Assembly: GCA_964635675.1 (NCBI GenBank)
Contig: CAZWPT010000003.1
Coordinates: forward strand, 3,672-67,671
From: an uncultured Nitrososphaerota archaeon
Lineage (GTDB): Archaea; Thermoproteota; EX4484-205; JAAOZP01
Length of the DNA: 64,000 nucleotides
Direction: 5' to 3'
The notes under the pieces are model-generated. The model was given only the letters and a program-made list of their open reading frames with translations, made no database searches and was not told the DNA's origin. The translations under genes were made by a program, and so were the position numbers. The first letter of the stretch is position 1; every line of letters begins with the position of its first letter. Below, one piece after another: positions 39,018 to 62,424 of this stretch.

Positions 39018-42000
39018 CTATTTCCTTAGTCTGATCGTTTTTATTTCCCACGGTCCAAGTTTGACTTTGAGCGAGCCTTCTTGAAGCTTAAGCCTCGACA
39101 GGTTTCTTTCAAGCAAATCGGTCTCAACAGCCTCTCTAACGGGAAAACCTGGAGTGATTTCTGCTTCGCTGCCTTCCCCAGTCGCGTCGTAAATTCTGAT
39201 TATGATGCCGTCCGAATCCTCAGCCGTCTTTAGGCAGGACAATACTATGTTTTCAGGATTTATTCTCATGAACGACGCTTCCTCTGGAAGATTTCCCTGG
39301 GAGGCTCTAACAGTCACAACAACTGTTTCGAGTGGATGGTTCAGTTCGTATCCTCTTCTGAAGGTAAGCGCCTTCCTCCAATCCTCTCTGTGAGGATACA
39401 AAGAATACTTAAGCTCGTGACGGCCCTGATCCGGATTTGGGTCTGGACTATAACTCGTCCTGAGAATCGTCATTCTCATTGTATTACCCTGCACATCAAA
39501 CCCGTACTTGCAGTCGTTCAGCAAGCTGACACCATACTCGCCGTCTGAGAGGTCAACCCATCTTAAAGCAGGAAACTCTCTTCCATCAGCAATTCTTGAA
39601 ATGCTTCCAAAAGGTATTTCAAAGGTTGCGGTTGAGGTTCCTAAGATTGGTGTGAAAGAGACTTTCAACATGGGGGCGTCAGTGAACTCGTCAGACACTT
39701 CATGCCAATCAACAGTTGTGTGAAAATCAATCCTAGGGATCCCTGCGTAAAGCATTATTTCTTGGGTTATGGTTGAATCCCTATATCTCCTTGTAGTATG
39801 GATCCTCGACACCACTGGGCCTTTCTCAACCGCTTTTACCTCAGCCCCAGTAAGCAGGTTCTCCACCTTAGTTATAGGCCCTATTATCCAGGCAGACATT
39901 CCATGAGGAGCCTCGTGAAACACTTGAAACAGGTTGCTGAACTCTGGCCGTGTAGCCTCATGTCTAAAAGCCTTAGTCACAAACCTGCCTTCCTTCTTAT
40001 CGTAAACCGACTCTATTGCTCCAGAATCCTGATCTACCTCAATCTTGAAAAACTCGTTTTCAAGCACTGTCTGCTTTGGTTCAGGTTGATAAGACTCCTC
40101 TTCCCCTCCTTCTACTAGATAGTAGGTTGAGTAGCCTAGACTTGGTACTTCAGCGATGAAAACCAGCTCATCGCCATTAATCTGAACAGGGTGTTTCTTT
40201 CCACGCACATCCCTAACAACCGGGTTTTCAGGAATTATCTCCCTAGGTATTTTAACTCTTACAACATCCTTTCTATCCCAGGCAAGAGTATTGAATACTA
40301 TTATTGCCAACCCTTCTTGAGAGAATTTTATCCTTTCAGCTGTCTTCTTCATGGATTTATCTAAGATTTCCTTTGCTGTTGCAAGAACCTCCTCAGCTAG
40401 ACGGTTAGAGTATGAGTAGGCGTCGTGAAACGCACTTCCATCCAGAATGTCGTGGAACTGGTTGAACAGTGTTTTCTTCCATGCTTCTTCAAGTTTTTCT
40501 CCAGGATATTCGCTAGCGATTGCTGAAAGCTTTTCAGCATCAACTAAATATCTTTCACACAACCTGTTGTAACGCTTAATGTCAGCATGAGTCGTGTAGC
40601 AACCGTCGAAAGTAAAGTTGAGCTCATCCCTAACTACTGGTAACTCTAGTTTCTCCTTCGAAACCTCGTCGAAAAACCGGTGCGTCGAACTGAAGACTAC
40701 GTCAGGAAGAACTGGCTTCTCCCGTATTTTGATCGCAGCCTTAATGTCCTCAATAGTTGCACCACCACCATGATCCCCAACCCCGTAAACGAACATGCTT
40801 GTTTTCAATCCGTATTTCTCATGCAAGAGTTTCGCGGTTTCAACTATGTTTTTAGGAGTGATCATGTTATTGTAAACACTGTTGAAGGCAAGCAGTCTTG
40901 AGCCATCTGGTCCCTCCCAACAAAACATTGGATATCCTTTTCCACATCTTGTGAAATAATAGTATTCCACTCTGGCTTTCTTTAAAACCTGCGGGAGTGT
41001 CCAAATGTGGCCGAAAGTATCAGGCTCCCATCCTACCTTTATTTCGAAGCCGAATTTCTCCTCCACGTATCTTTTTGAATACATTATTTGTCTAACCAGC
41101 GTCTCTTCCCCTATCATGTTGAGATCTGCCTCAACCCACATGGAAGCTGTAACATCCCAGTTTCCAGAGCGGATTTTCTCCCTTATTTTCTCGAAAAGAC
41201 CAGGGTTCTTCTCCTCCACTACTCTGTATGTTACTGCCTGGCTTTGAGAGAAGTGGAAATCCGGATAGCGATCCATTAGATCCACCATTGTTGAGAAGTC
41301 TCTCTCTATGACTTTCACAGTGTCTTCCCAAGGCCAGAGCCAATTCATATCTATGTGAGCATGCGCTACAAGGTGAACTTTAAACTCTTTAGCATACTTA
41401 GACAGAACCTTTAGCTTCTGTCTCGCCTCCTCTATTTCTATCAGAACGCTTTCGGCATTACGCGAAAAAACACCGAAGTCAAATTCTCCAACAACCCTGT
41501 TCAATGTTTCAGGCCCACCAGGCAGGATTTGGGCAAAACCCAACTCTTGAATGAAAGACTCTATTTCGAACGCGACGTTGTCGACAACATCATATGCTAG
41601 TTGAAACAAGGGTATTCCTTTTTTCTCCCCCCTTGAAAATGGTCTTTTTTCATACGCGTGTATAGCCACCACATGAATGTCGCCAGGTCTCGCTTTCTCC
41701 GCAATAGTTATTCTCGGTCCTCGAAAATCAGTCCAATAATCCTCCTTCAAGACAAGCCTGGAATCAACATAGACCTCGCCGCCGGTTATCATTGCTGAAG
41801 AATACATTTCAACCTTCGAGCCTGAAACCTTAAGCCCTTCTATCTCATCAGGAATCCTGATTTTACATCTCAGCCATACATCGCCTTTAGAAGGATCCCA
41901 TTGAAAAGGCAGTGAAACAGTCTCCCATGAGGAATCGTCAAAATCCCTCATGTAGGCTTCTTTCAAATCCCCTTGGAAAAACCTCCAGGATAATTTAGAT

Positions 42001-42080
42001 CGGTAGTCGGTTAGCATCCGATAGACGTTTTCCAGGTTTGCTTTAAGCTCCTCAAACTCGCCGACATCGGGTTCAGCCAT
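39018..42080 (-). CDS. GH38-family alpha-mannosidase
   Basis: 1020 aa. HAHIDMNWLW motif (the GH38 H-x-H-x-D metal/nucleophile region), plus GH38 central and C-terminal domains. Confidence 0.85.
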   Translation of the reverse strand: MAEPDVGEFEELKANLENVYRMLTDYRSKLSWRFFQGDLKEAYMRDFDDSSWETVSLPFQWDPSKGDVWLRCKIRIPDEIEGLKVSGSKVEMYSSAMITGGEVYVDSRLVLKEDYWTDFRGPRITIAEKARPGDIHVVAIHAYEKRPFSRGEKKGIPLFQLAYDVVDNVAFEIESFIQELGFAQILPGGPETLNRVVGEFDFGVFSRNAESVLIEIEEARQKLKVLSKYAKEFKVHLVAHAHIDMNWLWPWEDTVKVIERDFSTMVDLMDRYPDFHFSQSQAVTYRVVEEKNPGLFEKIREKIRSGNWDVTASMWVEADLNMIGEETLVRQIMYSKRYVEEKFGFEIKVGWEPDTFGHIWTLPQVLKKARVEYYYFTRCGKGYPMFCWEGPDGSRLLAFNSVYNNMITPKNIVETAKLLHEKYGLKTSMFVYGVGDHGGGATIEDIKAAIKIREKPVLPDVVFSSTHRFFDEVSKEKLELPVVRDELNFTFDGCYTTHADIKRYNRLCERYLVDAEKLSAIASEYPGEKLEEAWKKTLFNQFHDILDGSAFHDAYSYSNRLAEEVLATAKEILDKSMKKTAERIKFSQEGLAIIVFNTLAWDRKDVVRVKIPREIIPENPVVRDVRGKKHPVQINGDELVFIAEVPSLGYSTYYLVEGGEEESYQPEPKQTVLENEFFKIEVDQDSGAIESVYDKKEGRFVTKAFRHEATRPEFSNLFQVFHEAPHGMSAWIIGPITKVENLLTGAEVKAVEKGPVVSRIHTTRRYRDSTITQEIMLYAGIPRIDFHTTVDWHEVSDEFTDAPMLKVSFTPILGTSTATFEIPFGSISRIADGREFPALRWVDLSDGEYGVSLLNDCKYGFDVQGNTMRMTILRTSYSPDPNPDQGRHELKYSLYPHREDWRKALTFRRGYELNHPLETVVVTVRASQGNLPEEASFMRINPENIVLSCLKTAEDSDGIIIRIYDATGEGSEAEITPGFPVREAVETDLLERNLSRLKLQEGSLKVKLGPWEIKTIRLRK

Positions 42081-47714: not shown

Positions 47715-49679
47715 TCACATAGAGGCTTCTTGCGGAAGCAATTCGTCCACAGCCTCGTATAGACTCTGCCTGATTTGGCTGGACCTTTTTAAACTGAAAA
47801 GAGCCTCATTAAGCAGGCGCATCGCGAAGACGGAGGCGATCCAGCTGTTTGTCCAGCCTGACTCAACGCTCCAAGCCCCCCATCCTGTGTCTGAAGAACT
47901 CCCCCAGTACTCCCATTTCTCATAGTCGAAACCCCGCATCCAGCAGCCATCCAGATACGGTTGCTCCTCTGAGCGAAGCTGTATCCTGCATAGGAACCCT
48001 GCCAGCTTGTCCTCCGCCTGTTTTAAACTGGCACTTCCGTAAGCGGAAGCCAGCTCGTGCAGACCGAGGAAGGCGAAGTTTAAGGTGTAAAGCAGGTCGC
48101 ACGCGGGGTCTCCGTTCTCCTGGATTACCGGAGCCTCGGTCGTACCGTATTGTTCGTTCGAGCTGGGAGGCGGGTATTGGCCGTTTCCCACCGGCCCCAA
48201 CGTTTCCCTGATGGCGCCGCACGCCTGCTGCTGAGAAACCAGGTCTCCAACAATTCTGTCAACCCACATCCTGTATTCAGCCCTGTCTTCAACCCGGATG
48301 AGAAAGGCGAGTGGCAAGGCCATCCTTGCCAGTTCCTGCGTAAGCCCGTTTGTCCACTTCCAATCCGGGTATTTCTCAATAGTCATGCGAACCGCGTTAA
48401 CGGTTCTCTCCAGAAACCTCGGGTATCCTGCTAATAGAAAACCCCATAGGAAACAGGCCCACAGGTAAGCCTGGTAGTGAGGCGAATAAGAAACAATAGG
48501 GGTTTTCCAATAGTATTCCCACCCGTTTCTAAGTAGATCTGGAAGGTCTATCCTGTTCTTCCTAAACCCGAGGGGACCCGTAGTCCGGAGATTAGCGATC
48601 AGGCAGAGGGCCAGAGCCTTGTCCCACCGGTCATCCTCCAGATTGCTGCTTGCGGAAAGCGTTGAAAGAATGACCCTCGCATTATCATCCCCGTAGAAGA
48701 CTGGGAGGCCATCCATCCAGTTAACCAGCCCGTACGCAGGACTGTTCTTATCGGTTTGCTGGAAGGACCATACGTAGTCGAGGATGCTGGTGGCGATTAG
48801 CCTGCTCCTCGGGTTGCCTGTAAGCCTCCAATCGTACGCAAAAACCATCGCCGCCTCAGCCAAGCAGTCTGAACGTATCACCACCCTCTTGAGTTGATGC
48901 CCCTCGTAATCTATATTTGACTGATAGCCTTCAATAACACCTCTGTTTCTCTCAACGCCGAAAAGAACGTGTTTACGAAACCATTCTACAGACCTCCGGT
49001 AAGCCTCCTGTTCCGCATTATCAGGCAGGGGCTCGCTATTCTCGAACATGGTTCTAACGGTCGGAACCCAAGATAAGTCGTAGGCTTCCCCCGTTAACCA
49101 TTTCAACAACTTCCTCCATACCTGTCTCCAAGCATTGCTAGGAGCATACCTTCCTGTTCTAAACTGGCTCAGCTTACTCGTGGAGACCATGGTTCTATCA
49201 GAATACTCGAACAGAATAGGGTGGAACTCTCCGGGCAGGCCGAAAACCGCTTTATCATACCCTGCAACCCTTGCCAACACCATGTGAGAAACACCCTCCT
49301 TTTTATAGAGAGGCAGAAACCAGCAGTCATGCATGTTCAGTATAGTCATACGGGGAAGCTCGGGCTCGAAGAAACTTGAAGTGACGACCACTCTCTCCCA
49401 CTCTACTGTCCGTGGCTCTTCGAATACAATGTTCGGAAGACCTGATGGATATTCTAAGTAGAGCCTTAAATTTTTCTCCACGGCCTTATTTAAAATGACC
49501 GGCCCGATTGTCAGTTTCGGAACAGGATAAGAGTCCGCTAAGGCAAGCACACCGTCTCCATGGGAAGCATTGTTAACAGCCTCTTCTAACAGCTCATAAC
49601 GCATTAAGGTCCTCCCAGATTCCGCTAGAACCTTGTACAAGTCGTTTTCAGGAGAGCAGCACAGTATCAGCCTTCCCAT
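47715..49679 (-). CDS. Hypothetical 654-aa protein, possibly an (alpha/alpha)6-type glycoside-hydrolase-like enzyme (unverified)
   Basis: Long soluble ORF, rich in Trp/Tyr in its C-terminal half. Divergent from the LmbE-like gene and adjacent to GH38. No diagnostic motif recognised. Confidence 0.45.
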   Translation of the reverse strand: MGRLILCCSPENDLYKVLAESGRTLMRYELLEEAVNNASHGDGVLALADSYPVPKLTIGPVILNKAVEKNLRLYLEYPSGLPNIVFEEPRTVEWERVVVTSSFFEPELPRMTILNMHDCWFLPLYKKEGVSHMVLARVAGYDKAVFGLPGEFHPILFEYSDRTMVSTSKLSQFRTGRYAPSNAWRQVWRKLLKWLTGEAYDLSWVPTVRTMFENSEPLPDNAEQEAYRRSVEWFRKHVLFGVERNRGVIEGYQSNIDYEGHQLKRVVIRSDCLAEAAMVFAYDWRLTGNPRSRLIATSILDYVWSFQQTDKNSPAYGLVNWMDGLPVFYGDDNARVILSTLSASSNLEDDRWDKALALCLIANLRTTGPLGFRKNRIDLPDLLRNGWEYYWKTPIVSYSPHYQAYLWACFLWGFLLAGYPRFLERTVNAVRMTIEKYPDWKWTNGLTQELARMALPLAFLIRVEDRAEYRMWVDRIVGDLVSQQQACGAIRETLGPVGNGQYPPPSSNEQYGTTEAPVIQENGDPACDLLYTLNFAFLGLHELASAYGSASLKQAEDKLAGFLCRIQLRSEEQPYLDGCWMRGFDYEKWEYWGSSSDTGWGAWSVESGWTNSWIASVFAMRLLNEALFSLKRSSQIRQSLYEAVDELLPQEASM

Positions 49680-50600: not shown

Positions 50601-53531
50601 ATGCGGACGATTCAGGAGCTTGAAGCAAGACTAGCCCTTTTGTACGCCGCTTCCTTCAAAAACATCAGGATCCTTGACTGGGATTCCTTCACCGGCAATA
50701 AGGCGACGATAACCTTGGACGCTGCCGGAGAGAATTTTCAACTCGCAGTGTTGGATTACAAGGGTTCTGCACTTGTGAAGCTGGATTCAAAACCATATTT
50801 CGCCCTAGACGGCTACCATTATGCCATACCGATTCCACAGGGTCATCACGTGGTGGAGGCGGAGTTCTCGCCTTTCCTTGCATTCGGCGAGAAGGTGGAT
50901 GTTCACCCGGGTAAGCCTGTAGGCGTCAACAGAAACATGGAGGCGTTGAAGCTCTGGGCGTATGGAAGGTCGATTTTGGAACTAGCACGTGCAACTAAGG
51001 ATGAGGAGCTAAAATCTGTTCTCCTAAGGGCTTTAAGCAACTCCCTTAAGGAAGCTCCTTTCGAAACCGTTTCTAAAGAGCAGGTTCTCCTGGCCACTTC
51101 TTTCAAGGCTATGATAGGAGGGCTAGATAGTGTTCCAAGACTATTATCTGAGGATATTGCATCGCTATACGTTGAGGAGCAGGGCATAGAGAAATACGGG
51201 AGAGCGCTAAACCTGCTTAGGAGCATACTTAGTAATCTTGTTGGAAAATACGGGAAGAGGGGGGAAATGGTTGCGCTTGCCCATGCGCACATTGACACTG
51301 CTTGGCTCTGGCCCTTCGAAGAGACTAGGAAGAAGGTTTACAGAACATTCTCCACGGTGTTGACTCTAATGGAGCATTACGATTTTAAGTATATTCAGAG
51401 CGCTGCTATATATTACAATTGGATCAAGAAGGAGGAGCCTTCGATCTTTGAAATGGTCAGGGAGAAAATCAAGGAGGGGAAATGGATACTGGGAGCAGGC
51501 TGGGTGGAGTTCGACACTCAAATGATATCCGGCGAGTCGTTGGCTAGACAACTCTTATACTCTCAAAGGTTCTACATGGAGAACTTCGGGAGGACTGCTG
51601 AAGTACTTTGGCTCCCGGATACCTTCGGATTCTCGCCAACCCTCCCCCAGGCAGCGAAACTCGCCGGGGTCAAGGTTTTTGCAACCCATAAGGTTTTCTG
51701 GAATGATACGAACACTTTTCCATATAACGTGTTTCTCTGGGTCTGTCCAGACAACGCTAGGCTTGCGGCTGTAGCCTTTGGCCATGGCAGGGGAGGCTAT
51801 AACTCTGATTTCACTGCAGACAGTGTTTACGAGCAGTGGCAGAACTGGGTTGACAAGGATCGCCCCATGCTTTACTCCTACGGCTATGGAGACGGTGGGG
51901 GAGGACCTACTGAAGAAATGCTTCTGAGAGCTGAAGCAGTAGACTCGCTTCCAATCCTGCCGAGAGTGGATCTGAAAGGATCATTTGAATCAGTCGTCAA
52001 GCCTCCTGTTTATGAAGAATGGAGGGGAGAACTCTATCTTGAGGACCACAGGGGTGTTTTCACGTCGCATTCAAGGATGAAGCTGTTAAACAGGAGGGCG
52101 GAGCTAGCTTTAAGGGAGGCGGAAACATGGGCGACTTTCGCCGGAACGTATGATGGAGAAAGGTTTTCAAGCCTTTGGAAAATCCTTCTTAAAAACCAGT
52201 TTCACGATGTTCTGCCAGGCTCCTCCATAAGGGAGGTTTACAGCGAGGCTTACCCGGAGCTTGAGAAGGTGATTTCCGAGGCAGAGGAGATTGCTGAGGA
52301 AGCCATGAGGAAAATAGCTGGGAAAGGCCGTACGACGCTGGTTTTCAACTCATTACCCTGGGAGAGGGAGGACTATGTGGTGCTCAACAGACAGGTTGAT
52401 GGTTCCCAGAGGGTTCCCGAGGGCTTCTTAATAAGGGTGAGGACACTCTCAGCAGGGTATGCTCCGCTTAACAAGGCTCAAACGACCCAGGTGAAAATCC
52501 TTGAGGAGGATGATTCCTACATTGTTGAGAACAGGTTTTTCAAAGCCAGGATTGCTAAAAACGGGAGGCTGCTTTCAGTATTCGACAAGGAGGCGGGTAG
52601 GGAAGTCTTGAAGAGTCCGGGGAACAGGCTTGTTGCCTACGAGAACATCCCGGGGTGGGCTGACGCGTGGAATATAGAGAAGGGCTATAGGGAGACCTCT
52701 TTCGAAATATCTTCCTCGAAAAGCATGGTTGTCTGCAAAGGCCCGTTGATGGCTTCCGTCTGCTTCACCTACCCGTTCAGAAGATCCGAGATAAAGCAGG
52801 AAATCAGGGTCTACTCCGACTCTAGAAGAATAGACTTCAAAACAACTGTAAACATGAAGGATAGGGAGTTGCTGGTTAAAGCATGGTTTGATCTAGATTT
52901 GAACGCTGAGAAAGCCGTTTCAGACACCCCCTTCGGCGTTATTGAAAGGCCCACTACTGGAAACACTTCCTGGGAGAAAGCCAAGTATGAGGTGGCGATT
53001 CAGAAAATGATAGACCTCTCTGAGCACAATTATGGCGTTGCATTGCTGAACGACGGGAAATATGGAGTTTCAGTAGAGGGTTCTTCAATAGGTCTTTCAA
53101 TAACGAGGACCCCCGTCTTCCCAGACCCTTCTACCGACTTGGAGGAGACGGCCTTCACCTACTCTATCTACCCCCACGTAGGAGACTGGAAGGAGGCGGG
53201 AGTATTAAGGAGGGCTTACGAGCTTAATGTTCCGTTGAGAGCGTTAGAGGGGAAGAAGGGGAGTAAAAGCTTCTTGAAAATAGACTCCGGCAACCTGATG
53301 CTTGAGGCTGTTAAAAAGTCCGAGGATGGGGATGATGTTGTTCTAAGGCTTTACGAATTCTGGAATGCACGGGGCAAGGCACGCGTCAAACTTTCTTTTA
53401 ACGTTAAGAGCGTGGAATCAGTAGACATTCTTGAATCAAACAGTGTTGAGAGAGACATTAGCATAAGCAGGACTGCTTTAGACTTTACGTATCGCAATAG
53501 GGAAATAATCACTTTAAAAATACGCAGGTAG
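50601..53531 (+). CDS. GH38-family alpha-mannosidase (second copy)
   Basis: 976 aa. LAHAHIDTAWLWPF motif. Moderately diverged from the 39018..42080 copy. Confidence 0.85.
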   Translation: MRTIQELEARLALLYAASFKNIRILDWDSFTGNKATITLDAAGENFQLAVLDYKGSALVKLDSKPYFALDGYHYAIPIPQGHHVVEAEFSPFLAFGEKVDVHPGKPVGVNRNMEALKLWAYGRSILELARATKDEELKSVLLRALSNSLKEAPFETVSKEQVLLATSFKAMIGGLDSVPRLLSEDIASLYVEEQGIEKYGRALNLLRSILSNLVGKYGKRGEMVALAHAHIDTAWLWPFEETRKKVYRTFSTVLTLMEHYDFKYIQSAAIYYNWIKKEEPSIFEMVREKIKEGKWILGAGWVEFDTQMISGESLARQLLYSQRFYMENFGRTAEVLWLPDTFGFSPTLPQAAKLAGVKVFATHKVFWNDTNTFPYNVFLWVCPDNARLAAVAFGHGRGGYNSDFTADSVYEQWQNWVDKDRPMLYSYGYGDGGGGPTEEMLLRAEAVDSLPILPRVDLKGSFESVVKPPVYEEWRGELYLEDHRGVFTSHSRMKLLNRRAELALREAETWATFAGTYDGERFSSLWKILLKNQFHDVLPGSSIREVYSEAYPELEKVISEAEEIAEEAMRKIAGKGRTTLVFNSLPWEREDYVVLNRQVDGSQRVPEGFLIRVRTLSAGYAPLNKAQTTQVKILEEDDSYIVENRFFKARIAKNGRLLSVFDKEAGREVLKSPGNRLVAYENIPGWADAWNIEKGYRETSFEISSSKSMVVCKGPLMASVCFTYPFRRSEIKQEIRVYSDSRRIDFKTTVNMKDRELLVKAWFDLDLNAEKAVSDTPFGVIERPTTGNTSWEKAKYEVAIQKMIDLSEHNYGVALLNDGKYGVSVEGSSIGLSITRTPVFPDPSTDLEETAFTYSIYPHVGDWKEAGVLRRAYELNVPLRALEGKKGSKSFLKIDSGNLMLEAVKKSEDGDDVVLRLYEFWNARGKARVKLSFNVKSVESVDILESNSVERDISISRTALDFTYRNREIITLKIRR

Positions 53532-53535
53532 TTGA

Positions 53536-54819
53536 CTATTCCGAGTTTTCAGCCCTCCAGACAGCGTAGAGCTCTCTTAGAACATCTTTCTCAGCGCCGT
53601 CAAAGTTCCAGTACACTAGGCCGTCAGCATGGCCGCGCACCGCTGATTTAACGCTTTCCACGAAAAACTCTCTGCCAACCATAGACAAGTTTGAGATGCG
53701 TTCCCCAAGGAGGCTGTGCATCGTGTCGGTTCGGACGACGAGTATGACTGGCCAGACCCTAGCGTTCCCAATGTTCCAAGAGGAGATTTTTCGTAAGCCT
53801 GCTTCAATCGAGCTTGATGGTAGCCCTGAGAGCCTTGTCTCGTCGAAGCCGCGTGGCTCAACAATGGTGCTTAAGCCCGTTGCAACATAGTAGAACTTGG
53901 TGAGAAGATCCTTGTCGACACCGTAGGCACGGCTGAGCTCCTTGACCGCTGTTAAACCCTCCCACTGCATCCAGTCGAAGTAAAGCATTGGTTCGACAAC
54001 GTCGAGAACACGGCTGAGAGCCCTGTAGCTCTGGCCCGCCAGCAGGCTCCACCATGGGGATAAAAGGTTGGCGCCCACCACTGTACCCCGGCCACCCTCC
54101 TCCTTAACCGCTGAGGCGAAAGTCGTAACAACATTCTCAATATACTCGTTCCTATACCTGAACCATTCGAACACACCTGGAAACTCGTTGTAAAGATCCA
54201 GGATGTCAGGAGTGCTTAAGCCCCCCTGTTCAACCATCTCCTTCGGGAAAAGTCCTTTGCCGAGGAGGCCCGCTAGGCTTAACCAGTCTCTCCTAATGGA
54301 GCCCGGGTCGTAGCCCAGCCGCCTCATCTCCTCGCAGCAACTGGGGCAGAAGCATGTGAGAAAGTAGTCGAAGCCAGCCATCGGGCTTTCGAACCTTATG
54401 AAGTCGAGCACAACTCCCTCAACCCCGTATATTCTGACTAGGCATCTTAGGTCGGCGACTATTCTCCTTAAAACATCAGGGTTGGTGGGGCAGGCTCTAG
54501 CGGAATGAGGCTTCCCCAGTATTGTCCACGCAGAATACTCCGCCCCTTTTTCGGCGATATCAGGCCTGCTGAAAACAGGGTAGCTCGCGAAGAACTTTAA
54601 GCCTGCTCCGCGAAGCTCCTCGACAATCCTCTTTAGCTCCCCGTATGATTCTTTCCCAGCGTCTTCTGGAAGACACTTCACCCCTTTATAGAGCTCTTCA
54701 GCCTCCTCTGGGAAAACAGGAAGATGCGTATGCACGTACTCTATGCCGTATTCTTCGAGAAGACGACCACCGTATTCCCTCAGAGCCTTTTGACTGATGA
54801 AAGCTCCTATCGGCTTCAT
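53536..54819 (-). CDS. GHL-type (glycoside-hydrolase-like) TIM-barrel protein with a CFCPSCC motif, paralog A
   Basis: 427 aa. VVLDFIRFESP resembles the DYIRYP motif of GH-like families such as GHL10, followed by a FLTCFCPSCCEEMRRLGYD Cys cluster. Confidence 0.45.
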   Translation of the reverse strand: MKPIGAFISQKALREYGGRLLEEYGIEYVHTHLPVFPEEAEELYKGVKCLPEDAGKESYGELKRIVEELRGAGLKFFASYPVFSRPDIAEKGAEYSAWTILGKPHSARACPTNPDVLRRIVADLRCLVRIYGVEGVVLDFIRFESPMAGFDYFLTCFCPSCCEEMRRLGYDPGSIRRDWLSLAGLLGKGLFPKEMVEQGGLSTPDILDLYNEFPGVFEWFRYRNEYIENVVTTFASAVKEEGGRGTVVGANLLSPWWSLLAGQSYRALSRVLDVVEPMLYFDWMQWEGLTAVKELSRAYGVDKDLLTKFYYVATGLSTIVEPRGFDETRLSGLPSSSIEAGLRKISSWNIGNARVWPVILVVRTDTMHSLLGERISNLSMVGREFFVESVKSAVRGHADGLVYWNFDGAEKDVLRELYAVWRAENSE

Positions 54820-55958
54820 TTTCCAAGCGCCTCCGAGACCCTGAGGATCCGGTTCTTCTCCTCCTCTCGGAAAGCGAAGAAATCCAGCCCGTCTAAGCCT
54901 GTTTCAACAGCCAGCTTGACAACCTCCTCGATCTGCGGATCGTCAAGCATCACGATAGGGTGAAGCTCGCTTCGGCCAGCCAGAAGCCTTTTGGAGGCGA
55001 GAAACTCCATGCTTAGAGAGGATAATGGGAGGCAGTCTTCGAAAAGCCTGTTAATGCTTAGAGGATAACCCTCCCCGGAAAAACCGAAAAACCGGTAAAT
55101 TGCCTCTAACAGCTCGCTCTCAACCAGCCAGGGATTCCGCCTTAGAAGGTCCTCAGCGATTTTAGCCAGCTCGAAGTTGAGGCAGGCGACTCCCCGCCCC
55201 TTTCTGTAGACCATGGGTTTAACGAAATCCAGGTAGCGCCAAAGCTCCTGATAGTTCTGGCCGACGAGGAAGGCTAGTGAGGGGGTGAACACGTAGGCAC
55301 CTAGGCCCGCCTTCTTGTTGTAGGACCTGATTATGTTTCTAACTTCAAGTATTAACTCTGTTACACTACGCTCCCTGAACCTAAGCCAGTCTAAGAGAGG
55401 GCTTAACCCTGCGGCAATATCCAGGATACCCGCTGGAGAAGAACGGTATGCTTGCAAAGCTTCCCAAACGTTTTTAAAATCGTAGAAGGCGTCGAGCATT
55501 TGCTTAGCAGACTTCCTCATTTCTTCGAACCGGTAGCCGTATTCCGCAGCCTTGCTCCTACAATTGTCGCAGAAGCATGTCGCAAAGGCTTCGATTCCAC
55601 TGCCCATTGAGGCAAACCGTATTCCGTCGAGCAAAACGCTGTTAACATCGTATTTCTCAACGATCTCAGAAACCTGGCTAAGAGTCCTACGTCTTATCTC
55701 AGGGTTATTCGGGCATCCTGATCCGAACCATATGTGTCTCCTCCCGTACGGGTCCTCAGCTAGAAACTGCGGGGCTTGAAACTCCTTGTCCAGCCTGAAA
55801 GCCCCGATTACAACGTGGACGTTGAAACCCTTATCTATCAGCCCCTTGATGAGCCCAGGCTCGTAGCCAACAACGATATTCTGAAAACCGTTTTCAAGGA
55901 GAAAATCAGCGTAGTTGAGATTCGGGATCCCGAACATCCAGAGCCTCAGTTTTATCAC
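54816..55958 (-). CDS. GHL-type TIM-barrel protein with a CFCDNC motif, paralog B
   Basis: 380 aa. VLLDGIRFASM and FATCFCDNCRSKAAEYGY. The stop overlaps the start of paralog A by 4 nt (tandem, co-directional). Confidence 0.45.
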   Translation of the reverse strand: MIKLRLWMFGIPNLNYADFLLENGFQNIVVGYEPGLIKGLIDKGFNVHVVIGAFRLDKEFQAPQFLAEDPYGRRHIWFGSGCPNNPEIRRRTLSQVSEIVEKYDVNSVLLDGIRFASMGSGIEAFATCFCDNCRSKAAEYGYRFEEMRKSAKQMLDAFYDFKNVWEALQAYRSSPAGILDIAAGLSPLLDWLRFRERSVTELILEVRNIIRSYNKKAGLGAYVFTPSLAFLVGQNYQELWRYLDFVKPMVYRKGRGVACLNFELAKIAEDLLRRNPWLVESELLEAIYRFFGFSGEGYPLSINRLFEDCLPLSSLSMEFLASKRLLAGRSELHPIVMLDDPQIEEVVKLAVETGLDGLDFFAFREEEKNRILRVSEALGK

Positions 55959-55990
55959 CGTGCAGTAAGCGTTGGAGACAATATTTAAAC

Positions 55991-58768
55991 GTGTCCTTTA
56001 GGCTAATGGGAAAATTTTTTAGCACGTGTTTCAATGTTTCTAAGAAAAGGTGTCTGCTCGCTATGGAGAACTGGATCTTGGGAACCGAGGTCAGGAGCGT
56101 CGCGTCGAACGTTAGGCTCCCTTTTAACCGCCTCATAGTTCTCAACGATGGATGGATGTTTACAACCGATTCTGAGGAAAAGCTGACACATGAGGCAGTC
56201 AGCTCCGTGAAGGAAGCCAGGAGGGCTAGAGCGGGCCTACCTTGGGAAGCACAGTTCCCGGATCTCATAGACTACGACGGGGCTGCATGGTATTGGCGGG
56301 ACTTCAGCATCCCCGAGAGTCTTAAGGGTAAGAGGATAATCCTAAGGTTCGACGCCGCGGACTATGAGGCCACAGTATGGTTGAATGGGGTTGAGCTCGG
56401 CTCCCATAAGGGAGGCTACACTCCCTTCGAATTTGAAGCGACGAGTATCGTCAAGTTCAACGGTGAGAATAGGCTGGTTGTCAGGATTTACGACCCTAAG
56501 GATTGCTCCGAGGTTCCGAACGGCAAACAGTCCCATTACTGCAATATCGGCGGCCTCTGGCAGGGGGTTAGCATCCTTATCAGAGAGAAGGTTTACGTGC
56601 ACTCAGCCTTCGTAGTGCCGGATGTTGATAACTCTAGGATTATGGTTCGCCTAGTTCTTTCCCACGCTGAGGAGGCTCCTGGGGAAGGGCTTAGGCTAGT
56701 CCTCAGGGTTTCTCCAACAGGTGAGGAAAGGATTGTTGAAGTATCGAGGGGGAGACCTGTCTACGACGTGGAGATACCTATCCGTGAACTGAGACCATGG
56801 TCTCCAGAATCCCCATTTCTATACAGGCTTGAGATAATTCTCTTCGGGGAAGGGGTTGAAGACGCTTGTTTCGTAGACTTCGGAATGAGGAGGATCGAGG
56901 CGCGGGGGAACATAATCCTCCTTAACGGTGAACCCTTATACCTTATGGGAGCGCTCGACCAGGATTTCTACCCTGACGTGGTATACGGCACGCCCCCGGA
57001 CGAAACTCTTAGAGACCAGTTCCTGAAATCTAGAGAACTGGGGTTAAACTTTCTGAGGACCCATATTAAAATCCCGTGTCCAAACTACCTTGACTGGGCA
57101 GATAGGCTTGGAGTCATGCTTTGGATCGATTTTCCGAGCTTCTACAAGTTCACCGAGGAGGCGAAGAAAAGGATGAGGAGGGAGCTTGAAGAATGGATTT
57201 GGAGGGATTTCAATCATCCCTCAGTCTTCTGCTGGTGCCTTGTCAACGAGGAGTGGGGTGTTCCGCTTGCTGAAAACCCGGAGGCTAGACAGTGGCTTAA
57301 AGAAATGTGGCTGCTGGTTAAGAAGCTAGACCCCACTAGGCTTGTCGTAGACAATTCTCCCGCGAACGCGGGTCACATCGTTAGCGACATAGAGGACCAG
57401 CATGTCTACAAGGCTATACCCGACCATGCTTGGGAGTTCGAAGAGTGGGTTGAGGATTTTTCTAAACACCCAGCCTGGACTTTCAGGTTTCCCGAATCTG
57501 AGAGAAGGGGTTTTGAACCCCTGATGGTTTCAGAGTTCGGCAACTGGGGGCTTCCGGATGTTGAGGAGATTCTCCGTTACTATGATTGGATAGACCCATA
57601 CTGGTTTAACCAGGCGAGCTACGGCGGGCCAATTCGTACAGGTATTAACGAGTTCTTTAGGCTAAGGTTGGATGAAGCTTACGGCTCGTTGAAAAAGCTT
57701 TCGGAAGCTACTCAAAAGCATCAGCTTGACTCCCTGAAGTTTGAGATAGAAACAATGAGGCTTCATCCCGAGATAGTTGGCTACGTAATAACCCAGTTTA
57801 CAGATTTGAACAGTGAGAGCAACGGCCTCATGGATATGTGCAGGAGAGAGAAATTTTTACACCGTTTCATGAGATTATTCCAAGCGCAGGATGTTGTCGT
57901 AATAAGGCCTAGAAAATGGAGTTACCTCGAGGGTGAAGAAGCCAGGGTGAAAATATATGTTTCAAGGTTTTCAGCTGTTGAGCCGAAGACTGTGGAATGG
58001 TGGGTTGAAAACACTCCTCTGAGCGGTGTATTAAAGAAGGTTGAGGTTAAAAGGGCTGGTTGCGTTGAGGTTGGAGAGGCGTGTTTCAAGGTTCCAGAGG
58101 CCCACCATCCGGGGAAGCTAACCGTATGGGCAAGGCTGCTGGACGACGGTGGGAGAGAGGTCTCTCGAAACTACCAGGAGCTTCTGGTCCTACCGTCATG
58201 GTCCGTCAGGACCAGTGGGGAAATACGCGTGTTCGGAGTGGAAGAGAACATTGTGGAGAAGCTTAAGGAGACGGGCTTAACCATCGCTGAACCCGGTGAA
58301 TCCAGCATAGCCGTATCTTTAGGGCTTGTTGAAGAGGCTATTAGCCTTGTTGAGAAAGGGGGTAGGGTACTCTTTCTCCTAGAAGAGGTGGAGGCGGGGT
58401 CGTTATTATTCAGCAGATTCCGACTGGCCGATAGGAGGGAGAAAGGACGCTGGGGGGACTGGTGCACATCATTCCTCTGGCTTAAGAATAATGTTACGGG
58501 CAGGCTTTTTTACGAGGGACACTTGGGAATGCCGTTCATAGAATGTGTTCCAAGCATGGTTTTAGAAGCTCTAAGCCCCGGCGACATGAGGAACGCTCTA
58601 GGCGGGATTTTCCTCGGCTGGATGCGGGAGCCGGCTGCTACAATAGTTACCGTCAAACTGGGCCTCGGCCTCGCCGTCCTCTGCACTTTCAGGCTGATTA
58701 AGAACCTCGTTAAGGACCCTGTTTCAACCGCACTATTCTGCTCGCTGGTTGACCTAATGGTTTCATAG
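55991..58768 (+). CDS. GH2-family glycosidase (beta-galactosidase/beta-mannosidase/beta-glucuronidase-like)
   Basis: 925 aa. GH2 sugar-binding domain (AAWYWRDFSIPESLKGKRIILRFDAADYEATVWLNGVELGSHKGGYTPFEF) and TIM-barrel region with WCLVNEEWG. The true start could be 56006 (TATA-like AATATTTAAA 26 nt upstream) or 56063 (MENW). Confidence 0.8.
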   Translation: MSFRLMGKFFSTCFNVSKKRCLLAMENWILGTEVRSVASNVRLPFNRLIVLNDGWMFTTDSEEKLTHEAVSSVKEARRARAGLPWEAQFPDLIDYDGAAWYWRDFSIPESLKGKRIILRFDAADYEATVWLNGVELGSHKGGYTPFEFEATSIVKFNGENRLVVRIYDPKDCSEVPNGKQSHYCNIGGLWQGVSILIREKVYVHSAFVVPDVDNSRIMVRLVLSHAEEAPGEGLRLVLRVSPTGEERIVEVSRGRPVYDVEIPIRELRPWSPESPFLYRLEIILFGEGVEDACFVDFGMRRIEARGNIILLNGEPLYLMGALDQDFYPDVVYGTPPDETLRDQFLKSRELGLNFLRTHIKIPCPNYLDWADRLGVMLWIDFPSFYKFTEEAKKRMRRELEEWIWRDFNHPSVFCWCLVNEEWGVPLAENPEARQWLKEMWLLVKKLDPTRLVVDNSPANAGHIVSDIEDQHVYKAIPDHAWEFEEWVEDFSKHPAWTFRFPESERRGFEPLMVSEFGNWGLPDVEEILRYYDWIDPYWFNQASYGGPIRTGINEFFRLRLDEAYGSLKKLSEATQKHQLDSLKFEIETMRLHPEIVGYVITQFTDLNSESNGLMDMCRREKFLHRFMRLFQAQDVVVIRPRKWSYLEGEEARVKIYVSRFSAVEPKTVEWWVENTPLSGVLKKVEVKRAGCVEVGEACFKVPEAHHPGKLTVWARLLDDGGREVSRNYQELLVLPSWSVRTSGEIRVFGVEENIVEKLKETGLTIAEPGESSIAVSLGLVEEAISLVEKGGRVLFLLEEVEAGSLLFSRFRLADRREKGRWGDWCTSFLWLKNNVTGRLFYEGHLGMPFIECVPSMVLEALSPGDMRNALGGIFLGWMREPAATIVTVKLGLGLAVLCTFRLIKNLVKDPVSTALFCSLVDLMVS

Positions 58769-58811: not shown

Positions 58812-60326
58812 TTAGAAAGACAGTAACACTTGCCAGATGAACAAGTATCCGAGCGAGTCGATCTCCTCCCAGACCCTTTTTAACAGACCCTCGTCCCCAG
58901 AGATCTCTGCAATCTCCCTGCGTTTCTCATCCCAAGGAATGCAGGAACCAGGTTTCACCCCCGGCTTTTTCAGCGTGGCTTCCGGCATACTAGCAACCCT
59001 TTCCAGACTAGAATGCTTCAAGCCCTCGGAGCCTCGTTCATACTTGCCATAGTTGCGTGTAAAATCAGTCATCGCCTTCACGTTTTCCACCTTGGCATCA
59101 TTCTGAATAATCGCTGACGCATCCATGATGTATCCTCCGTCTGAAGAAATAGTGTCAATGATCTTCTTGCAGTAGCGACGAACCTCGTCAGGCGTCCCGA
59201 TGGTAAGCAGCCAGTTGGGCAGGCCTCCGCTTAAACAGAACCTACGGCCTAGTTTCCTATGTGTTTCCGAGACATCGCTTCTATCTATGTGGAAGACTAT
59301 GCTGCCCTCGGGCAGTTCTGCAAAACTGTCTAAGTGTGGTGTCCAGTCTCCTTCAGCGTAGAAAAGCACCCGGTGCCCGTGGGACCAGAGCTCCTCCACG
59401 ATAGGCTTCAGAGTACGCCAATGAATGTTTTTAAAATGGTTCATGCTGATGAACGGTATAGAGGTGCGATGCATCCAGAAGCCTATGGGTATTTTCTTCT
59501 CAGGGTCGGCGGTCATGCGTGCAACCTCTGCCAAGTGTGGGGCGAGTGCTTCACAGGCTTCAAGCACCTTTCCAGGCTGCCTGTGTAGATCCTTAGCTAA
59601 GCCAACATAGCCGCGCAGCTTATCGGCAATAATATCAAGAGGGGCTTTGAGAATACCGGCTATAGCGGATACGGTTCCAGCCTCCCTCCTCATTCTCTCC
59701 ACCTGGGGTCCAAACGCGTTAAAGTATTCACTCATCGCCATGGCTCCCTTTACAAGCGCAAGCCTGCTCCGATATTGGCAGCCAGACGCTTCCGCACCTA
59801 TATCGCTTGAAACACGTGGCAGCCAGACGTTGTACAGGAACGCCGTAGGGTCGTCGATCAGCAAGTTATACTCATTTGGCTTCATAAACGCTTTCTCCTC
59901 AGGAGGCTCAAGATACTGGAATGCCGTCTCGGGAGGAATGTCTACGCCGGGTATAGCATAGTATTTCAGGCCCAGGGCCTGCGTCAAACCCGTCCAGACG
60001 TAGACCATGTTGGCGACCATCGCATCCCAGTCGAAATCCCTGGCGCATTTCAACACTGCTTCAAAAGCCTTCCTGTAGTCGTGCGTCACCTCCTGACAGG
60101 TATAGCCGGCATACTTCGCGGTAAACTCGGCGACGAAAGGGCGAATCGGGATGCAATCAGGTTTTTCATTACACATAGCGGTTAAATAGCGTTTTAACCT
60201 CTCCTGGTAAAGCTGCTCTTTTTCACCCATCTCAACGGCCCCCGTCAGTCTCAGTATTTCAACCAGCCTCATCCTTAAATGCTTTGCACCGTTGGAAGAA
60301 GAATTAGAAGGCTCTCGACTTTTCAT
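58812..60326 (-). CDS. Distant URO-D/MtaA-superfamily-like protein, paralog 6 (longer, with N-terminal extension)
   Basis: 504 aa. The C-terminal ...CLSGGLPNWLLTIGTPDEVRRYCKKIIDTISSDGGYIMDASAIIQND parallels ...CLVGNVDPRVIEYGTKSDVEREVERCL..GGKEGYILSASANISIN of paralog 1. The H-x-[CD]-G position reads FYAEGD here. Confidence 0.45.
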   Translation of the reverse strand: MKSREPSNSSSNGAKHLRMRLVEILRLTGAVEMGEKEQLYQERLKRYLTAMCNEKPDCIPIRPFVAEFTAKYAGYTCQEVTHDYRKAFEAVLKCARDFDWDAMVANMVYVWTGLTQALGLKYYAIPGVDIPPETAFQYLEPPEEKAFMKPNEYNLLIDDPTAFLYNVWLPRVSSDIGAEASGCQYRSRLALVKGAMAMSEYFNAFGPQVERMRREAGTVSAIAGILKAPLDIIADKLRGYVGLAKDLHRQPGKVLEACEALAPHLAEVARMTADPEKKIPIGFWMHRTSIPFISMNHFKNIHWRTLKPIVEELWSHGHRVLFYAEGDWTPHLDSFAELPEGSIVFHIDRSDVSETHRKLGRRFCLSGGLPNWLLTIGTPDEVRRYCKKIIDTISSDGGYIMDASAIIQNDAKVENVKAMTDFTRNYGKYERGSEGLKHSSLERVASMPEATLKKPGVKPGSCIPWDEKRREIAEISGDEGLLKRVWEEIDSLGYLFIWQVLLSF

Positions 60327-60398: not shown

Positions 60399-61229
60399 AT
60401 GGGGAGCCTGAAAATAGGTGTAGCATTATGGTCGTTAGGATTGACTAGGAACGAGTCGGAGTTTAAGGCGGCTCTTAAAACCGCGAGTAGAATCGGCGTC
60501 AAAGGTGTGCAACTCTTTTGCGTCGACTACTCGCCTTCGGAACCATGCTTCCTGGATCCGGATAGGTGTGTAGGCGTTGAAAGGAGGAGGATTCTGGAGC
60601 TGGTGGAGTCATATGGGCTTGAGATAACCGGGTTCTGCGCTCAACTCACAGGACCAATGGACCCCGGTATGCCATGGCCGGGCTCCGCTCTCGGAGACCC
60701 GAGGGGTCTTGAGAAGAGGATTGAAAAAACAATGAGGGCTCTGGAGCTGGCTTCAGACATGGGCTCGAAAGTGGTTACGACCCATCCCGGTGAAATACCT
60801 TCAGACGCATCGAGCAATAAGTATAGAGTGATGCTTGATTCCTGCAGGATTCTTGCTAAGCATGCTGAACAGGTTGGCGCCGCATTCTGTATAGAGACGG
60901 GGCAGGAGCCGGCTGAGGTCCTCAGGCGTCTGCTAGAGGAAGTCGGCAGCGAAGGATTGAAGGTTAACTATGATCCTGCAAACATGCTTCGCTACGGTGT
61001 GGTTGAGGGTGTGAGAACCCTGGCCCCATGGATTGTACATACTCATGCTAAGGATTACAACCCGGTAACGAAGCGTGCAACAGTAGGCGAAGGCCTAGTG
61101 CCCTGGGATGATTACGTAAACGCGTTGAAGTCGATAAACTATTCAGGATGGTTTGCGATCGAGGATGAAACCGGTATTGACGTTGTCGAATCCATTAGGC
61201 GTGGCAAAGCATTCTTAGAAAAATACTAG
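60399..61229 (+). CDS. Sugar phosphate isomerase/epimerase (xylose-isomerase-like TIM barrel)
   Basis: 276 aa. LKIGVALWSLG...GVKGVQLF N-terminus and ...VHTHAKDY... pattern of the PF01261-like family. Confidence 0.7.
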   Translation: MGSLKIGVALWSLGLTRNESEFKAALKTASRIGVKGVQLFCVDYSPSEPCFLDPDRCVGVERRRILELVESYGLEITGFCAQLTGPMDPGMPWPGSALGDPRGLEKRIEKTMRALELASDMGSKVVTTHPGEIPSDASSNKYRVMLDSCRILAKHAEQVGAAFCIETGQEPAEVLRRLLEEVGSEGLKVNYDPANMLRYGVVEGVRTLAPWIVHTHAKDYNPVTKRATVGEGLVPWDDYVNALKSINYSGWFAIEDETGIDVVESIRRGKAFLEKY

Positions 61230-61269: not shown

Positions 61270-62424
61270 CTACTTAAAACTCGATAAAACCCTCAGCCTG
61301 TTTCCAGTTCTCGAGGACTGAATCGACTTTATCATTATTTCACTGACATGCATACCCCATTCTAGGCTTGGCAGAGGCTCCTTATCGTTCAGTATGCAGT
61401 TGAAAAAGTGTTCAGTCGACGCTTGATAGTAGTTCCAGGGTGGGAAATCCTGCTTGGGAATACAGTACCAGCCTTCCGGCGAATAGTACTTGCTCTCCTT
61501 ACGCTTCGTCATTACGGATATCGCTGCCGACCCGCCTAGGAGTAGAGCACCATCACTACCGTAAATCTCTATATCAGGCATGTTTCCAACACCATTCCTG
61601 AGGCCGTCTGGAGTAACGAAGTTGGCTATGACACACCCTAGGCTCCCGTTTCTCATGCTTAACAGCGTGAACGTGTTGTCCTCCGCCCCCATCTTTATCC
61701 GTTTAGTGGGCTTCGCGGTGGCAAGCTTCTTCCAGAACGGCTCGTAGGGCTTTTGGGAGAGGTGCTCCGTGAAGAATTCTTCCGGAACTATGAACCTCTC
61801 CAGTATGGATATCTTCGCCATTCCAGCCACCGATGAAGCCGGGCCTAAAAGGAAGGTTAGCGCAGCTATCTGGTATACTCCGAGGTCGAAAAGAGGTCCT
61901 CCTGCCTGCCTGGTGAAGAAGGTTTCCTCACCCCAGGTGGGTGGGCCTCTCCCCAGTCCTGCTCTAAACCAGTAGACCTCTCCTATGGCTCCCTCCTCAA
62001 GTATGCTTTTAGCCTTCAGGTATAAAGGGTTCATCTGCACGTTTGGCTCGACAAGCGCCTTAACACCGGCCTTTTTAATCGCATTGAAAACTTTCCTTGC
62101 ATCCCTCATGCTCGTCGCCAACGGCTTCTGAATCAAGAGGTGTTTCCCAGCCTTCGCCGCCCTCGTTGCATGGTCTGCATGCATACCCATGCCTGACAGT
62201 ATGAAGACAGCTTCGATATCGGCTTTTCTCAGCATCTCGTCGATATCCGTGTAGTACTCTTTAGCACCCCACAGCTCCATGCTTCTCTTAGCCCTTTCCT
62301 TAATCCTGTCGCACGTTGCCACAAGCTCACCCTTCTCCACTATAGCTGGAAAATAGGCCTCGTTGGCAACAACGCCGCATCCCACGACTCCGCATTTCAC
62401 CTTCCGGTCCCCCATCGCCTTCAC
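61270..62424 (-). CDS. Gfo/Idh/MocA-family NAD(P)-dependent oxidoreductase
   Basis: 384 aa. N-terminal Rossmann VKCGVVGCGVVANEAYFPA, with size and layout of the family. Confidence 0.8.
   Translation of the reverse strand: MKAMGDRKVKCGVVGCGVVANEAYFPAIVEKGELVATCDRIKERAKRSMELWGAKEYYTDIDEMLRKADIEAVFILSGMGMHADHATRAAKAGKHLLIQKPLATSMRDARKVFNAIKKAGVKALVEPNVQMNPLYLKAKSILEEGAIGEVYWFRAGLGRGPPTWGEETFFTRQAGGPLFDLGVYQIAALTFLLGPASSVAGMAKISILERFIVPEEFFTEHLSQKPYEPFWKKLATAKPTKRIKMGAEDNTFTLLSMRNGSLGCVIANFVTPDGLRNGVGNMPDIEIYGSDGALLLGGSAAISVMTKRKESKYYSPEGWYCIPKQDFPPWNYYQASTEHFFNCILNDKEPLPSLEWGMHVSEIMIKSIQSSRTGNRLRVLSSFK

Follow-up and report, generated by a model that had tools for sequence, protein, structure and literature searches.

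In a 64,000-nucleotide stretch of contig CAZWPT010000003.1 from an uncultured Nitrososphaerota archaeon (the whole stretch is hereafter called the window), two overlapping minus-strand genes, B (380 residues) and A (427 residues), encode paralogous proteins that are each predicted to fold as a single glycosidase-type barrel. We read them, with a probability of about 0.6, as a Brockarchaeota-like two-gene operon of duplicated barrels related to glycoside hydrolase family GH42, with a structural Zn(Cys)4 site and a catalytic set different from that of GH42. The estimate covers this reading as a whole, including a probable distant homology between the GH42 catalytic barrel and the A/B family, which is curated in neither Pfam nor NCBIfam, and the assignment, by alignment, of four conserved cysteines to a putative structural zinc site. 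Put briefly, the family is a GH42-derived barrel with altered catalytic residues, and the A/B pair is a coupled duplication in one archaeal clade.

A coupled pair of paralogous genes

The pair and its candidate control elements are located as follows.

54816–55958, minus strand: gene B, 380 residues, GTG start; upstream gene and first cistron (from the open reading frame list)
53536–54819, minus strand: gene A, 427 residues, ATG start; downstream gene and second cistron (from the open reading frame list)
54816–54819, minus strand: ATGA, in which the stop of B overlaps the start of A, a translational-coupling arrangement read directly from the sequence
54830–54834, minus strand: GGAGG, a putative Shine-Dalgarno-like element within the 3′ end of B, 10 nt ahead of the ATG of A
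55982–55989, minus strand: TTTAAATA, archaeal TATA-box-like, 23 nt upstream of the GTG of B, a candidate promoter element

These coordinates match exactly the two co-directional, overlapping reading frames reported in an earlier annotation made from the letters and their translations (the sequence-only reading); both lie on the minus strand and share the four nucleotides ATGA. The same annotation had called A and B divergent paralogs, and because BLASTP aligned them at 25% identity over 341 residues (E = 1e-23), the paralogy is real. No third copy was found within the 64-kb window, and the pair is a self-contained bicistronic unit.

The GGAGG at the B/A junction is also present in L001, L002 and L006 (L numbers denote loci of the scan described below). 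The TTTAAATA element lies in the short divergent region that gene B shares with a GH2 gene, and its putative promoter role follows from the archaeal TATA consensus; GCTTAAATATT is kept at the equivalent position upstream of the orthologs in L001–L003. The start of gene B is ambiguous between the GTG at 55958 and an in-frame ATG at 55937, homologs starting with either MFGIP or MRLWMFGIP.

Predicted fold and family placement

AlphaFold2, supplied with an 84-sequence alignment, confidently modelled both proteins as single-domain (β/α)8 barrels, with a predicted local distance difference test score (pLDDT) of 95.6 and a predicted template modelling score (pTM) of 0.93 for B, and a pLDDT of 92.8 and a pTM of 0.91 for A. 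Each model comprises eight strand-helix units with a long helical excursion after strand 4, and neither contains an extra domain beyond the barrel. In Foldseek searches against the PDB, A and B shared as neighbours the C-terminal GH153 domain of PgaB, the GHL10 domain of Cwp19 and more than ten GH42 β-galactosidases; further neighbours were β-amylase, GH156, GH164, GH191 and GH18. The matches had E values of 1e-8 to 1e-11, template modelling (TM) scores of 0.5–0.65 and sequence identities of 9–15%. All of the top 40 matches of B were glycoside hydrolase (GH) or GH-like barrels (probability 1.00), as were nearly all of the top 50 for both proteins, the few exceptions standing at rank 42 or lower. 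The predicted fold class is clear, without any close solved structure, and the models support membership of A and B in the glycosidase-type (β/α)8 triosephosphate isomerase (TIM)-barrel superfamily, in line with the GH-like TIM barrels that had been proposed from the sequence.

Family profiles placed the proteins less firmly. B matched Pfam GH42 (PF02449) over residues 71–253 at 19.5 bits (E = 7e-4), below the cut-off of 21, and GHL10 (PF02638) at 14.2 bits against a cut-off of 27.9. A had no Pfam match at E ≤ 0.1, GH42 and GHL10 included, DUF4015 (PF13200) matched neither protein at that threshold, and an NCBIfam scan of both returned no match. Distant family members, taken singly, gave weak DUF4015, GHL10, GHL6, GH42 or GH18 matches, or none; their DUF4015 scores ranged from 17 to 33 bits against a cut-off of 27, that of P0084 being 27.8. 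The likeness to glycoside-hydrolase-like families put forward in the sequence-only reading is visible as weak GHL10, GHL6 and DUF4015 matches within the family, at scores that lie below or barely at threshold. Assignment of A and B to GH42, GHL10 or DUF4015 itself fails on family thresholds and on catalytic motifs.

A PDB search with single sequences retrieved only Cwp19 for B (E = 1.6) and nothing for A, while a profile search gave Cwp19 at E = 0.02 and the uncharacterised structure 4S1A, below significance, at E = 0.17. When a B-family profile was run against 1.84 billion cluster representatives (50% identity clusters), it recovered 248 proteins at E ≤ 1e-30, a number that rose to 787 when the limit was 1e-10 and to 2013 when it was 1e-3. 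The literature on DUF4015 and GHL5/6/15 yielded nothing relevant to function.

The relation to GH42 emerged from profile alignment with hhalign. A 24-sequence B profile aligned with 1KWG, the GH42 β-galactosidase of Thermus thermophilus A4, at E = 2e-4, and a 154-sequence family alignment aligned with three PDB GH42 sequences at a probability of 95.3% (E = 2e-8, 207 columns), pairing B 14–235 with 1KWG 17–257; the 1KWG sequence used was 100% identical to the PDB entry over residues 1–387. The alignment points to homologous barrel strands 1–5 in the family and in GH42 enzymes such as 1KWG and the Bacillus circulans enzyme 3TTS. An LLDxxRF motif falls in both within the long helical excursion after strand 4, and a strand-6 L-D-F-x5-Y with a conserved Tyr may also be shared, according to a low-confidence greedy extension. 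In contrast to the single barrels of A and B, GH42 enzymes have three domains (barrel, trimerisation and C-terminal β), and their PDB chains are 645–712 residues long. No GH42 gene for direct comparison is present in the window.

Three other systems resemble the pair in part. Cwp19 of Clostridioides difficile (GHL10; 5OQ2) is the best sequence-level relative in the PDB and a top Foldseek match, but it is an extracellular cell-wall protein without the Cys4 site, its motif reads HFDDYFYP where the family has LDGIRFAS, and the Pfam GHL10 score of B falls far below the cut-off. The DUF4015 structure 4S1A shows FDYIRFP and GQ...D..SPMVY motifs, which in a sub-threshold profile alignment resemble the D-x-IRF-P/S after strand 4 and the GQ...D...SPM-Y of strands 5–6 in the family; however, the aligned 4S1A segment contains no Cys4 insertion. 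The GH153 domain of PgaB (4P7O, 6AU1) gave the best Foldseek E values, about 1e-10 with either protein (TM 0.52–0.65), yet at 9–13% identity it has no detectable sequence homology with A or B, lacks the Cys4 site, and occurs in the periplasm as a fusion to a deacetylase.

The cysteine cluster aligns with the zinc site of GH42

The sequence-only reading had noted a CxCxxC motif in each protein and considered cysteine clusters unusual in glycosidases. A fourth cysteine upstream of this motif had been overlooked there: the conserved set in B is C82 (in GSGCPNNP, after strand 3) with C128, C130 and C133 (TCFCxxC, after strand 4), and in A it is C110 with C156, C158 and C161. Rather than being unusual, the cluster aligns residue for residue with a known structural Cys4 zinc site of GH42. 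Both hhalign runs gave the same pairings with 1KWG (C82/C106, C128/C150, C130/C152 and C133/C155), and C106, C150, C152 and C155 are the zinc ligands of that enzyme. In GH42 the site stabilises the catalytic domain, stands outside the catalytic cycle and is not conserved across the family (PMC8573354).

Each of the four positions holds Cys in 138–139 of the 154 family sequences, so the motif is conserved in homologs. In 14 of the 154, from Hydrogenedentota, Nitrospirales and Spirochaetes metagenome-assembled genomes (MAGs), all four are replaced together by S-D-S-S/A; these sequences retain W191, G233, Q234, Y251 and E263, which are 100% conserved, and D111, R114 and S117, which are conserved at 98% or more. 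Because replacement is all-or-none while the other invariant residues stay, the cluster is best explained as a structural, non-catalytic site. A catalytic or redox role appears unlikely, since the subclade that has lost the four cysteines as a block still has the residues presumed to form the active site.

The Ser-Asp-Ser-Ser/Ala replacement occurs in L023, L030, L032, L035–L038, L041–L043, L045, L046, L062 and protein P0069. In a neighbour-joining (NJ) tree these Cys-less sequences are interspersed among Cys4-bearing ones, and the loss may have been repeated with the same outcome.

Candidate catalytic residues differ from those of GH42

The residues invariant in the B family are D111, R114, F115, S117, W191, G233, Q234, D244, M249, Y251 and E263, the polar core of which (D111, R114, Y251 and E263) forms our candidate active site. 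D111, R114, F115 and S117, together with C128, C130 and C133, are invariant or nearly so among the 154 sequences, and the motifs VVLDFIRF/VLLDGIRF and TCFCPSC/TCFCDNC singled out in the sequence-only reading are present within these stretches. A retains the counterparts D139, R142, F143, S145, W219, G262, Q263, D273, M278, Y280 and E287. It lacks the B-type residues W77, R252, C259, N261 and D340, whose positions lie at the barrel rim, and carries additional insertions following strands 2 and 7.

GH42 enzymes carry their acid/base Glu in an N-E motif at the end of strand 4 (E148 in Gal42; PMC8573354). In its place the family has G(F/Y)-IRF-x-S and a 6-residue insertion: hhalign sets D111-G112 opposite D139-N140 of 1KWG, and the acid/base E141, opposite the insertion (IRFASM) and then Gly, finds no counterpart. 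Of the 154 sequences, 152 carry G, F or Y at position 112. The confident hhalign region stops at strand 5. Beyond it, in a low-confidence greedy extension and by eye, strand 7 (PIVML) ends in L, I or V; it would be hydrophobic where GH42 has its nucleophile Glu (VME; E312 in 1KWG), leaving this residue too without an equivalent, at the low confidence of that alignment. The same low-confidence extension aligns LDFVKPMVY251 with the strand-6 LDFASWDSY of GH42, in which the invariant Tyr hydrogen-bonds the nucleophile (PMC8573354). As neither glutamate has an apparent counterpart, the chemistry would not be the Glu/Glu mechanism of GH42.

Comparable arrangements have been described in the GHL10 and GH153 barrels. 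In Cwp19, a strand-4 Asp pair corresponds to the GH42 N-E, the strand-6 Tyr is conserved and Gly328 replaces the strand-7 Glu (PMC5765458); A and B resemble it in carrying an Asp and a Tyr at the ends of strands 4 and 6, respectively, and in the apparent lack of the strand-7 catalytic Glu. PgaB likewise has a GH-like barrel that depends on a key strand-4 Asp, but, apparently unlike A and B, it keeps the strand-7 Glu (Glu607; PMC5765458).

The conserved acid nearest to strand 7 is D340, which is specific to the B type (123 of 154 sequences); in A this position is Arg, and a conserved Asp stands two residues later. The Arg had raised the option that A is a dead pseudoenzyme, which we rejected given that A possesses all family invariants and its own nearby Asp. 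GH18-like DxxDxDxE chemistry, suggested by the LDGI stretch, was also rejected, the first Asp alone being present.

Distribution and evolution of the pair

Homologous loci were collected from one genome per species with a B-only alignment as the query, giving 74 loci. The B type had 71 word-indexed matches across archaea and further homologs in many bacterial phyla. The A type had 12 close homologs only, all in Thermoproteota. B is followed by A in tandem in L001, L002, L003, L005 and L006 (Brockarchaeota-like), L007 and L008 (Thermoproteales), L010 and L011 (Thermoprotei) and L075, and no A-type gene without an upstream B-type gene was found in these 10 loci. The 4-nt overlap is retained in L001, L002, L003, L006, L007, L010 and L075. 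Overlap and GGAGG coupling persist down to 40% identity for B and 28% for A, the A proteins of L010 and L011 being at only 28%. In L001, L002, L003, L005 and L006 the whole island is syntenic, with genes for a xylose-isomerase-like TIM barrel, a URO-D-like protein, GH2, B, A, GH38, PIG-L and a 654-residue protein. Lone B-type genes occur in L009, in L012 (Bathyarchaeota), in L013 (a Brockarchaeota MAG), in Hadarchaeota and Thermococci, and in every bacterial locus.

In the NJ tree the A type is monophyletic, forming one long-branched clade. Because the branching within this clade, (L010,L011),(L008,(L007,Brockarchaeota)), is matched by that of the B genes with which the A genes are paired, the topology indicates a single duplication followed by co-inheritance of A and B. 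L009, which is unpaired on its contig, is nested among the paired lineages. Conservation and co-divergence of the coupled pair are confined to a single Thermoproteota/Brockarchaeota clade. The sequence-only reading had made its interpretation depend on whether homologs keep both the Cys cluster and the paired arrangement: the cluster is kept, whereas most homologs are single, pairing being conserved in this one archaeal clade.

In L005 (8001–8924) and L006 (8043–9131) the B-type gene appears truncated or split into two reading frames with the downstream A intact, through either a frameshift assembly error or pseudogenisation. The bacterial homologs P0041, P0046 and P0049 carry N-terminal twin-arginine-type (Tat) signals, for example MNRRTFLGVTAAGAMG, and would be exported folded, unlike the leaderless archaeal proteins.

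Proposed function and alternative explanations

We propose that an ancient duplication gave rise to two single-domain glycosidase-type barrels in one operon, which would be produced from one transcript by coupled translation and inherited as a unit. In each, a zinc staple would tie the β3-α3 loop (C-P-N-N-P) to the β4-α4 loop (C-x-C-x-x-C), as in GH42, stabilising the barrel and taking no part in chemistry. The active site would lie at the C-terminal face of the barrel and comprise Arg114 and Glu263 together with Asp111 and Tyr251, which stand at the ends of strands 4 and 6, respectively. By analogy, it may resemble those of GHL10/Cwp19 and GH153/PgaB, and the chemistry may be non-classical, possibly relying on a single carboxylate with substrate assistance, as proposed for PgaB.

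The archaeal A and B proteins have no signal peptide, and their genes are co-located with genes for GH38, GH2, a PIG-L deacetylase and a sugar isomerase and oxidoreductase. From the leaderless proteins and this sugar-related context we infer that A and B may cleave an imported (hetero-)oligosaccharide in the cytoplasm, presumably acting on the same substrate. Conserved coupling and co-divergence favour a functional linkage between the two, which may take the form of a hetero-oligomer or of two consecutive specificities; we consider each of these a real but tentative option, a little short of even odds.

Several points weigh against this proposal. Zinc binding by A and B is predicted from alignment, and with both catalytic glutamates of GH42 and clan GH-A apparently without a counterpart, A and B may be something other than hydrolases. 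MAG-derived hypothetical proteins make up the whole set of homologs, with no characterised member among them. About 60 of the 74 sampled loci are single-gene, and a heteromer is thus not a property of the family. The neighbourhood is variable outside the Brockarchaeota synteny block and gives little grip on the substrate. The GH2 enzyme next to the pair is not of the β-mannosidase type, which weakens a simple N-glycan-core scenario. What the analysis shows directly is the reading frames, their paralogy, the modelled fold, the homology of the Cys4 site to the GH42 zinc ligands, the patterns of conservation and where the pair occurs; zinc binding, the catalytic residues, hydrolase activity, the substrate class and a heteromer are all elements that we infer.

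The alternative that fares best treats A and B as independent enzymes, A having taken on a new glycosidic specificity and being co-transcribed with B for consecutive cleavages of one glycan, without a complex. A looks catalytically competent in that it has every family invariant (D139, R142, Y280, E287 and the Cys4 set), its differences at the rim (W77, R252, C259, N261 and D340) and its two insertions are typical of a specificity change, and most family members are single-gene. Against it, A is never alone or unlinked from B in the available data, and the tight 4-nt coupling has been held over a long evolutionary distance. We regard this explanation as plausible at somewhat under one-half.

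An obligate A-B heterodimeric glycosidase, along the lines of the heterodimeric enzyme suggested in the sequence-only reading and with the Cys cluster serving catalysis or redox regulation as a functional metal or disulfide centre, would explain why the ATGA overlap and the internal GGAGG are kept across deep divergence (40% identity for B, 28% for A), why the A type is never found without an upstream B type in 10 loci, and why the A and B trees are congruent. It is nonetheless improbable: the cluster aligns with a non-catalytic structural site of GH42, 14 homologs with the S-D-S-S/A block replacement keep the other invariants, and most sampled loci have a single gene.

Equally, A and B are unlikely to be non-hydrolases, be it enzymes of the lytic transglycosylase or lyase type reported for Cwp19 or non-catalytic carbohydrate-binding barrels. 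This possibility draws on the GH42 E141 and E312 positions, at which the family has no conserved acid (with low confidence for the strand-7 part), and on Cwp19, the nearest sequence relative with a structure, which lacks the strand-7 Glu (PMC5765458) and is called a lytic transglycosylase in the title of PMC6016235. That D111, R114, Y251 and E263 are conserved throughout 154 sequences spanning many phyla speaks for a catalytic function and not simply for binding, however, and for the archaeal versions, cytoplasmic among exo-glycosidases, the peptidoglycan substrate of a lytic transglycosylase is not expected.

That the Cys4 set binds iron in a rubredoxin-like manner, or an Fe-S cluster as a redox sensor in anaerobic thermophiles, is very improbable: four invariant cysteines in proteins of anaerobes and the Tat signals of P0041, P0046 and P0049, typical of exported cofactor proteins, speak for it, but the spacing and position equal those of the crystallographic GH42 zinc site and the Ser/Asp block replacement fits a structural role. 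Nor is C-x-C-x-x-C combined with a single distant Cys known as a standard 4Fe-4S motif.

Under the preferred reading of duplicated GH42-related barrels, the pair is a modest novelty and not an oddity. Its Cys cluster, already known from GH42, brings no new kind of metal chemistry to glycosidases. The B type marks an uncurated, fairly large GH-like family in archaea and many bacterial phyla that current carbohydrate-enzyme annotation has missed. Through the common zinc-staple segment, the family connects the barrel of GH42 with the GHL10/DUF4015 group and bears on the swapping of catalytic machinery on a conserved barrel. It also adds two candidate enzymes to the glycan-degradation island of Brockarchaeota-type hot-spring archaea, which are known only from metagenomes. 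A bolder and rather doubtful extension is that the B family founds a new glycoside hydrolase/transglycosylase family, combining the GH42 barrel and zinc staple with a different catalytic set (Asp111 on strand 4, Glu263 after strand 6), working in one archaeal clade as an obligate B plus a faster-diverging A enzyme and acting on a glycan outside the reach of known families.

Neighbouring genes and other features of the window

Two glycosidase genes flank the pair, as the sequence-only reading had stated.

50601–53531, plus strand: GH38 α-mannosidase with Pfam GH38 N, middle, C and C2 domains (E = 2e-70)
55991–58768, plus strand: GH2 enzyme, divergent from B, with Pfam GH2 N, Ig-like and TIM domains

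The GH38 gene is convergent with A, with 4 nt between the gene ends, and is syntenic in L002, L003, L005 and L006. The GH2 gene is syntenic in L001–L006; judged against the N-terminus of homologs, its start is probably an ATG near 56066 (MENWILG). The closest solved relatives of its product are of the β-galactofuranosidase and β-glucuronidase types, not β-mannosidase. An N-glycan-core pathway, with GH38, a GH2 β-mannosidase, PIG-L as chitobiose deacetylase and A/B as glucosaminidase, was downgraded given the wrong GH2 type and the differing neighbours of single-copy homologs.

Across phyla, B-type genes most often have genes for xylose-isomerase-like TIM proteins nearby (13 loci), then those for GFO/IDH/MocA oxidoreductases (9) and GH2 (7), with GH38 occasionally; the context is carbohydrate-related but not specific. 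The xylose-isomerase-like and GFO/IDH/MocA genes of the window lie at 60399–61229 (plus strand) and 61270–62424 (minus strand); such neighbours occur also in L031, L033, L041, L045, L048, L055–L057, L061 and L067, and their recurrence may hint at an oxidative (keto-sugar) route of glycoside processing. Between the GH2 and xylose-isomerase-like genes, a 504-residue URO-D-family protein is encoded at 58812–60326 (minus strand; Pfam E = 4.5e-24). Its gene is syntenic in L001–L006, and a fold of the uroporphyrinogen-decarboxylase/methyltransferase type is unexplained in a sugar cluster. In the same glycan island, 47715–49679 (minus strand) encodes a 654-residue protein with no Pfam or PDB sequence match, which is about 80% identical to proteins adjoining the PIG-L deacetylase in L003, L005 and L006.

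In L040, L047, L049, L053 and L073 (Omnitrophota, Ratteibacteria and Vermiphilus-type), the B-type gene is directly followed by one for a conserved 713-residue protein (about 1251–3392 in L047), which by the look of its sequence we take to be a candidate GH20-type hexosaminidase barrel.

Elsewhere in the window, a second GH38 α-mannosidase of 1020 residues (39018–42080, minus strand) is 33% identical to the one beside the pair. An open reading frame of 1810 codons (8093–13525, minus strand) joins GH2-type sugar-binding and Ig-like domains (residues ~120–350) to C-terminal MacB periplasmic-core and FtsX permease domains (residues ~1170–1545), an unusual fusion of a glycosidase-like part with an ABC-type permease. 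Adjoining this GH2-FtsX fusion gene is a reading frame for a 778-residue protein without a Pfam match (13575–15911, plus strand).

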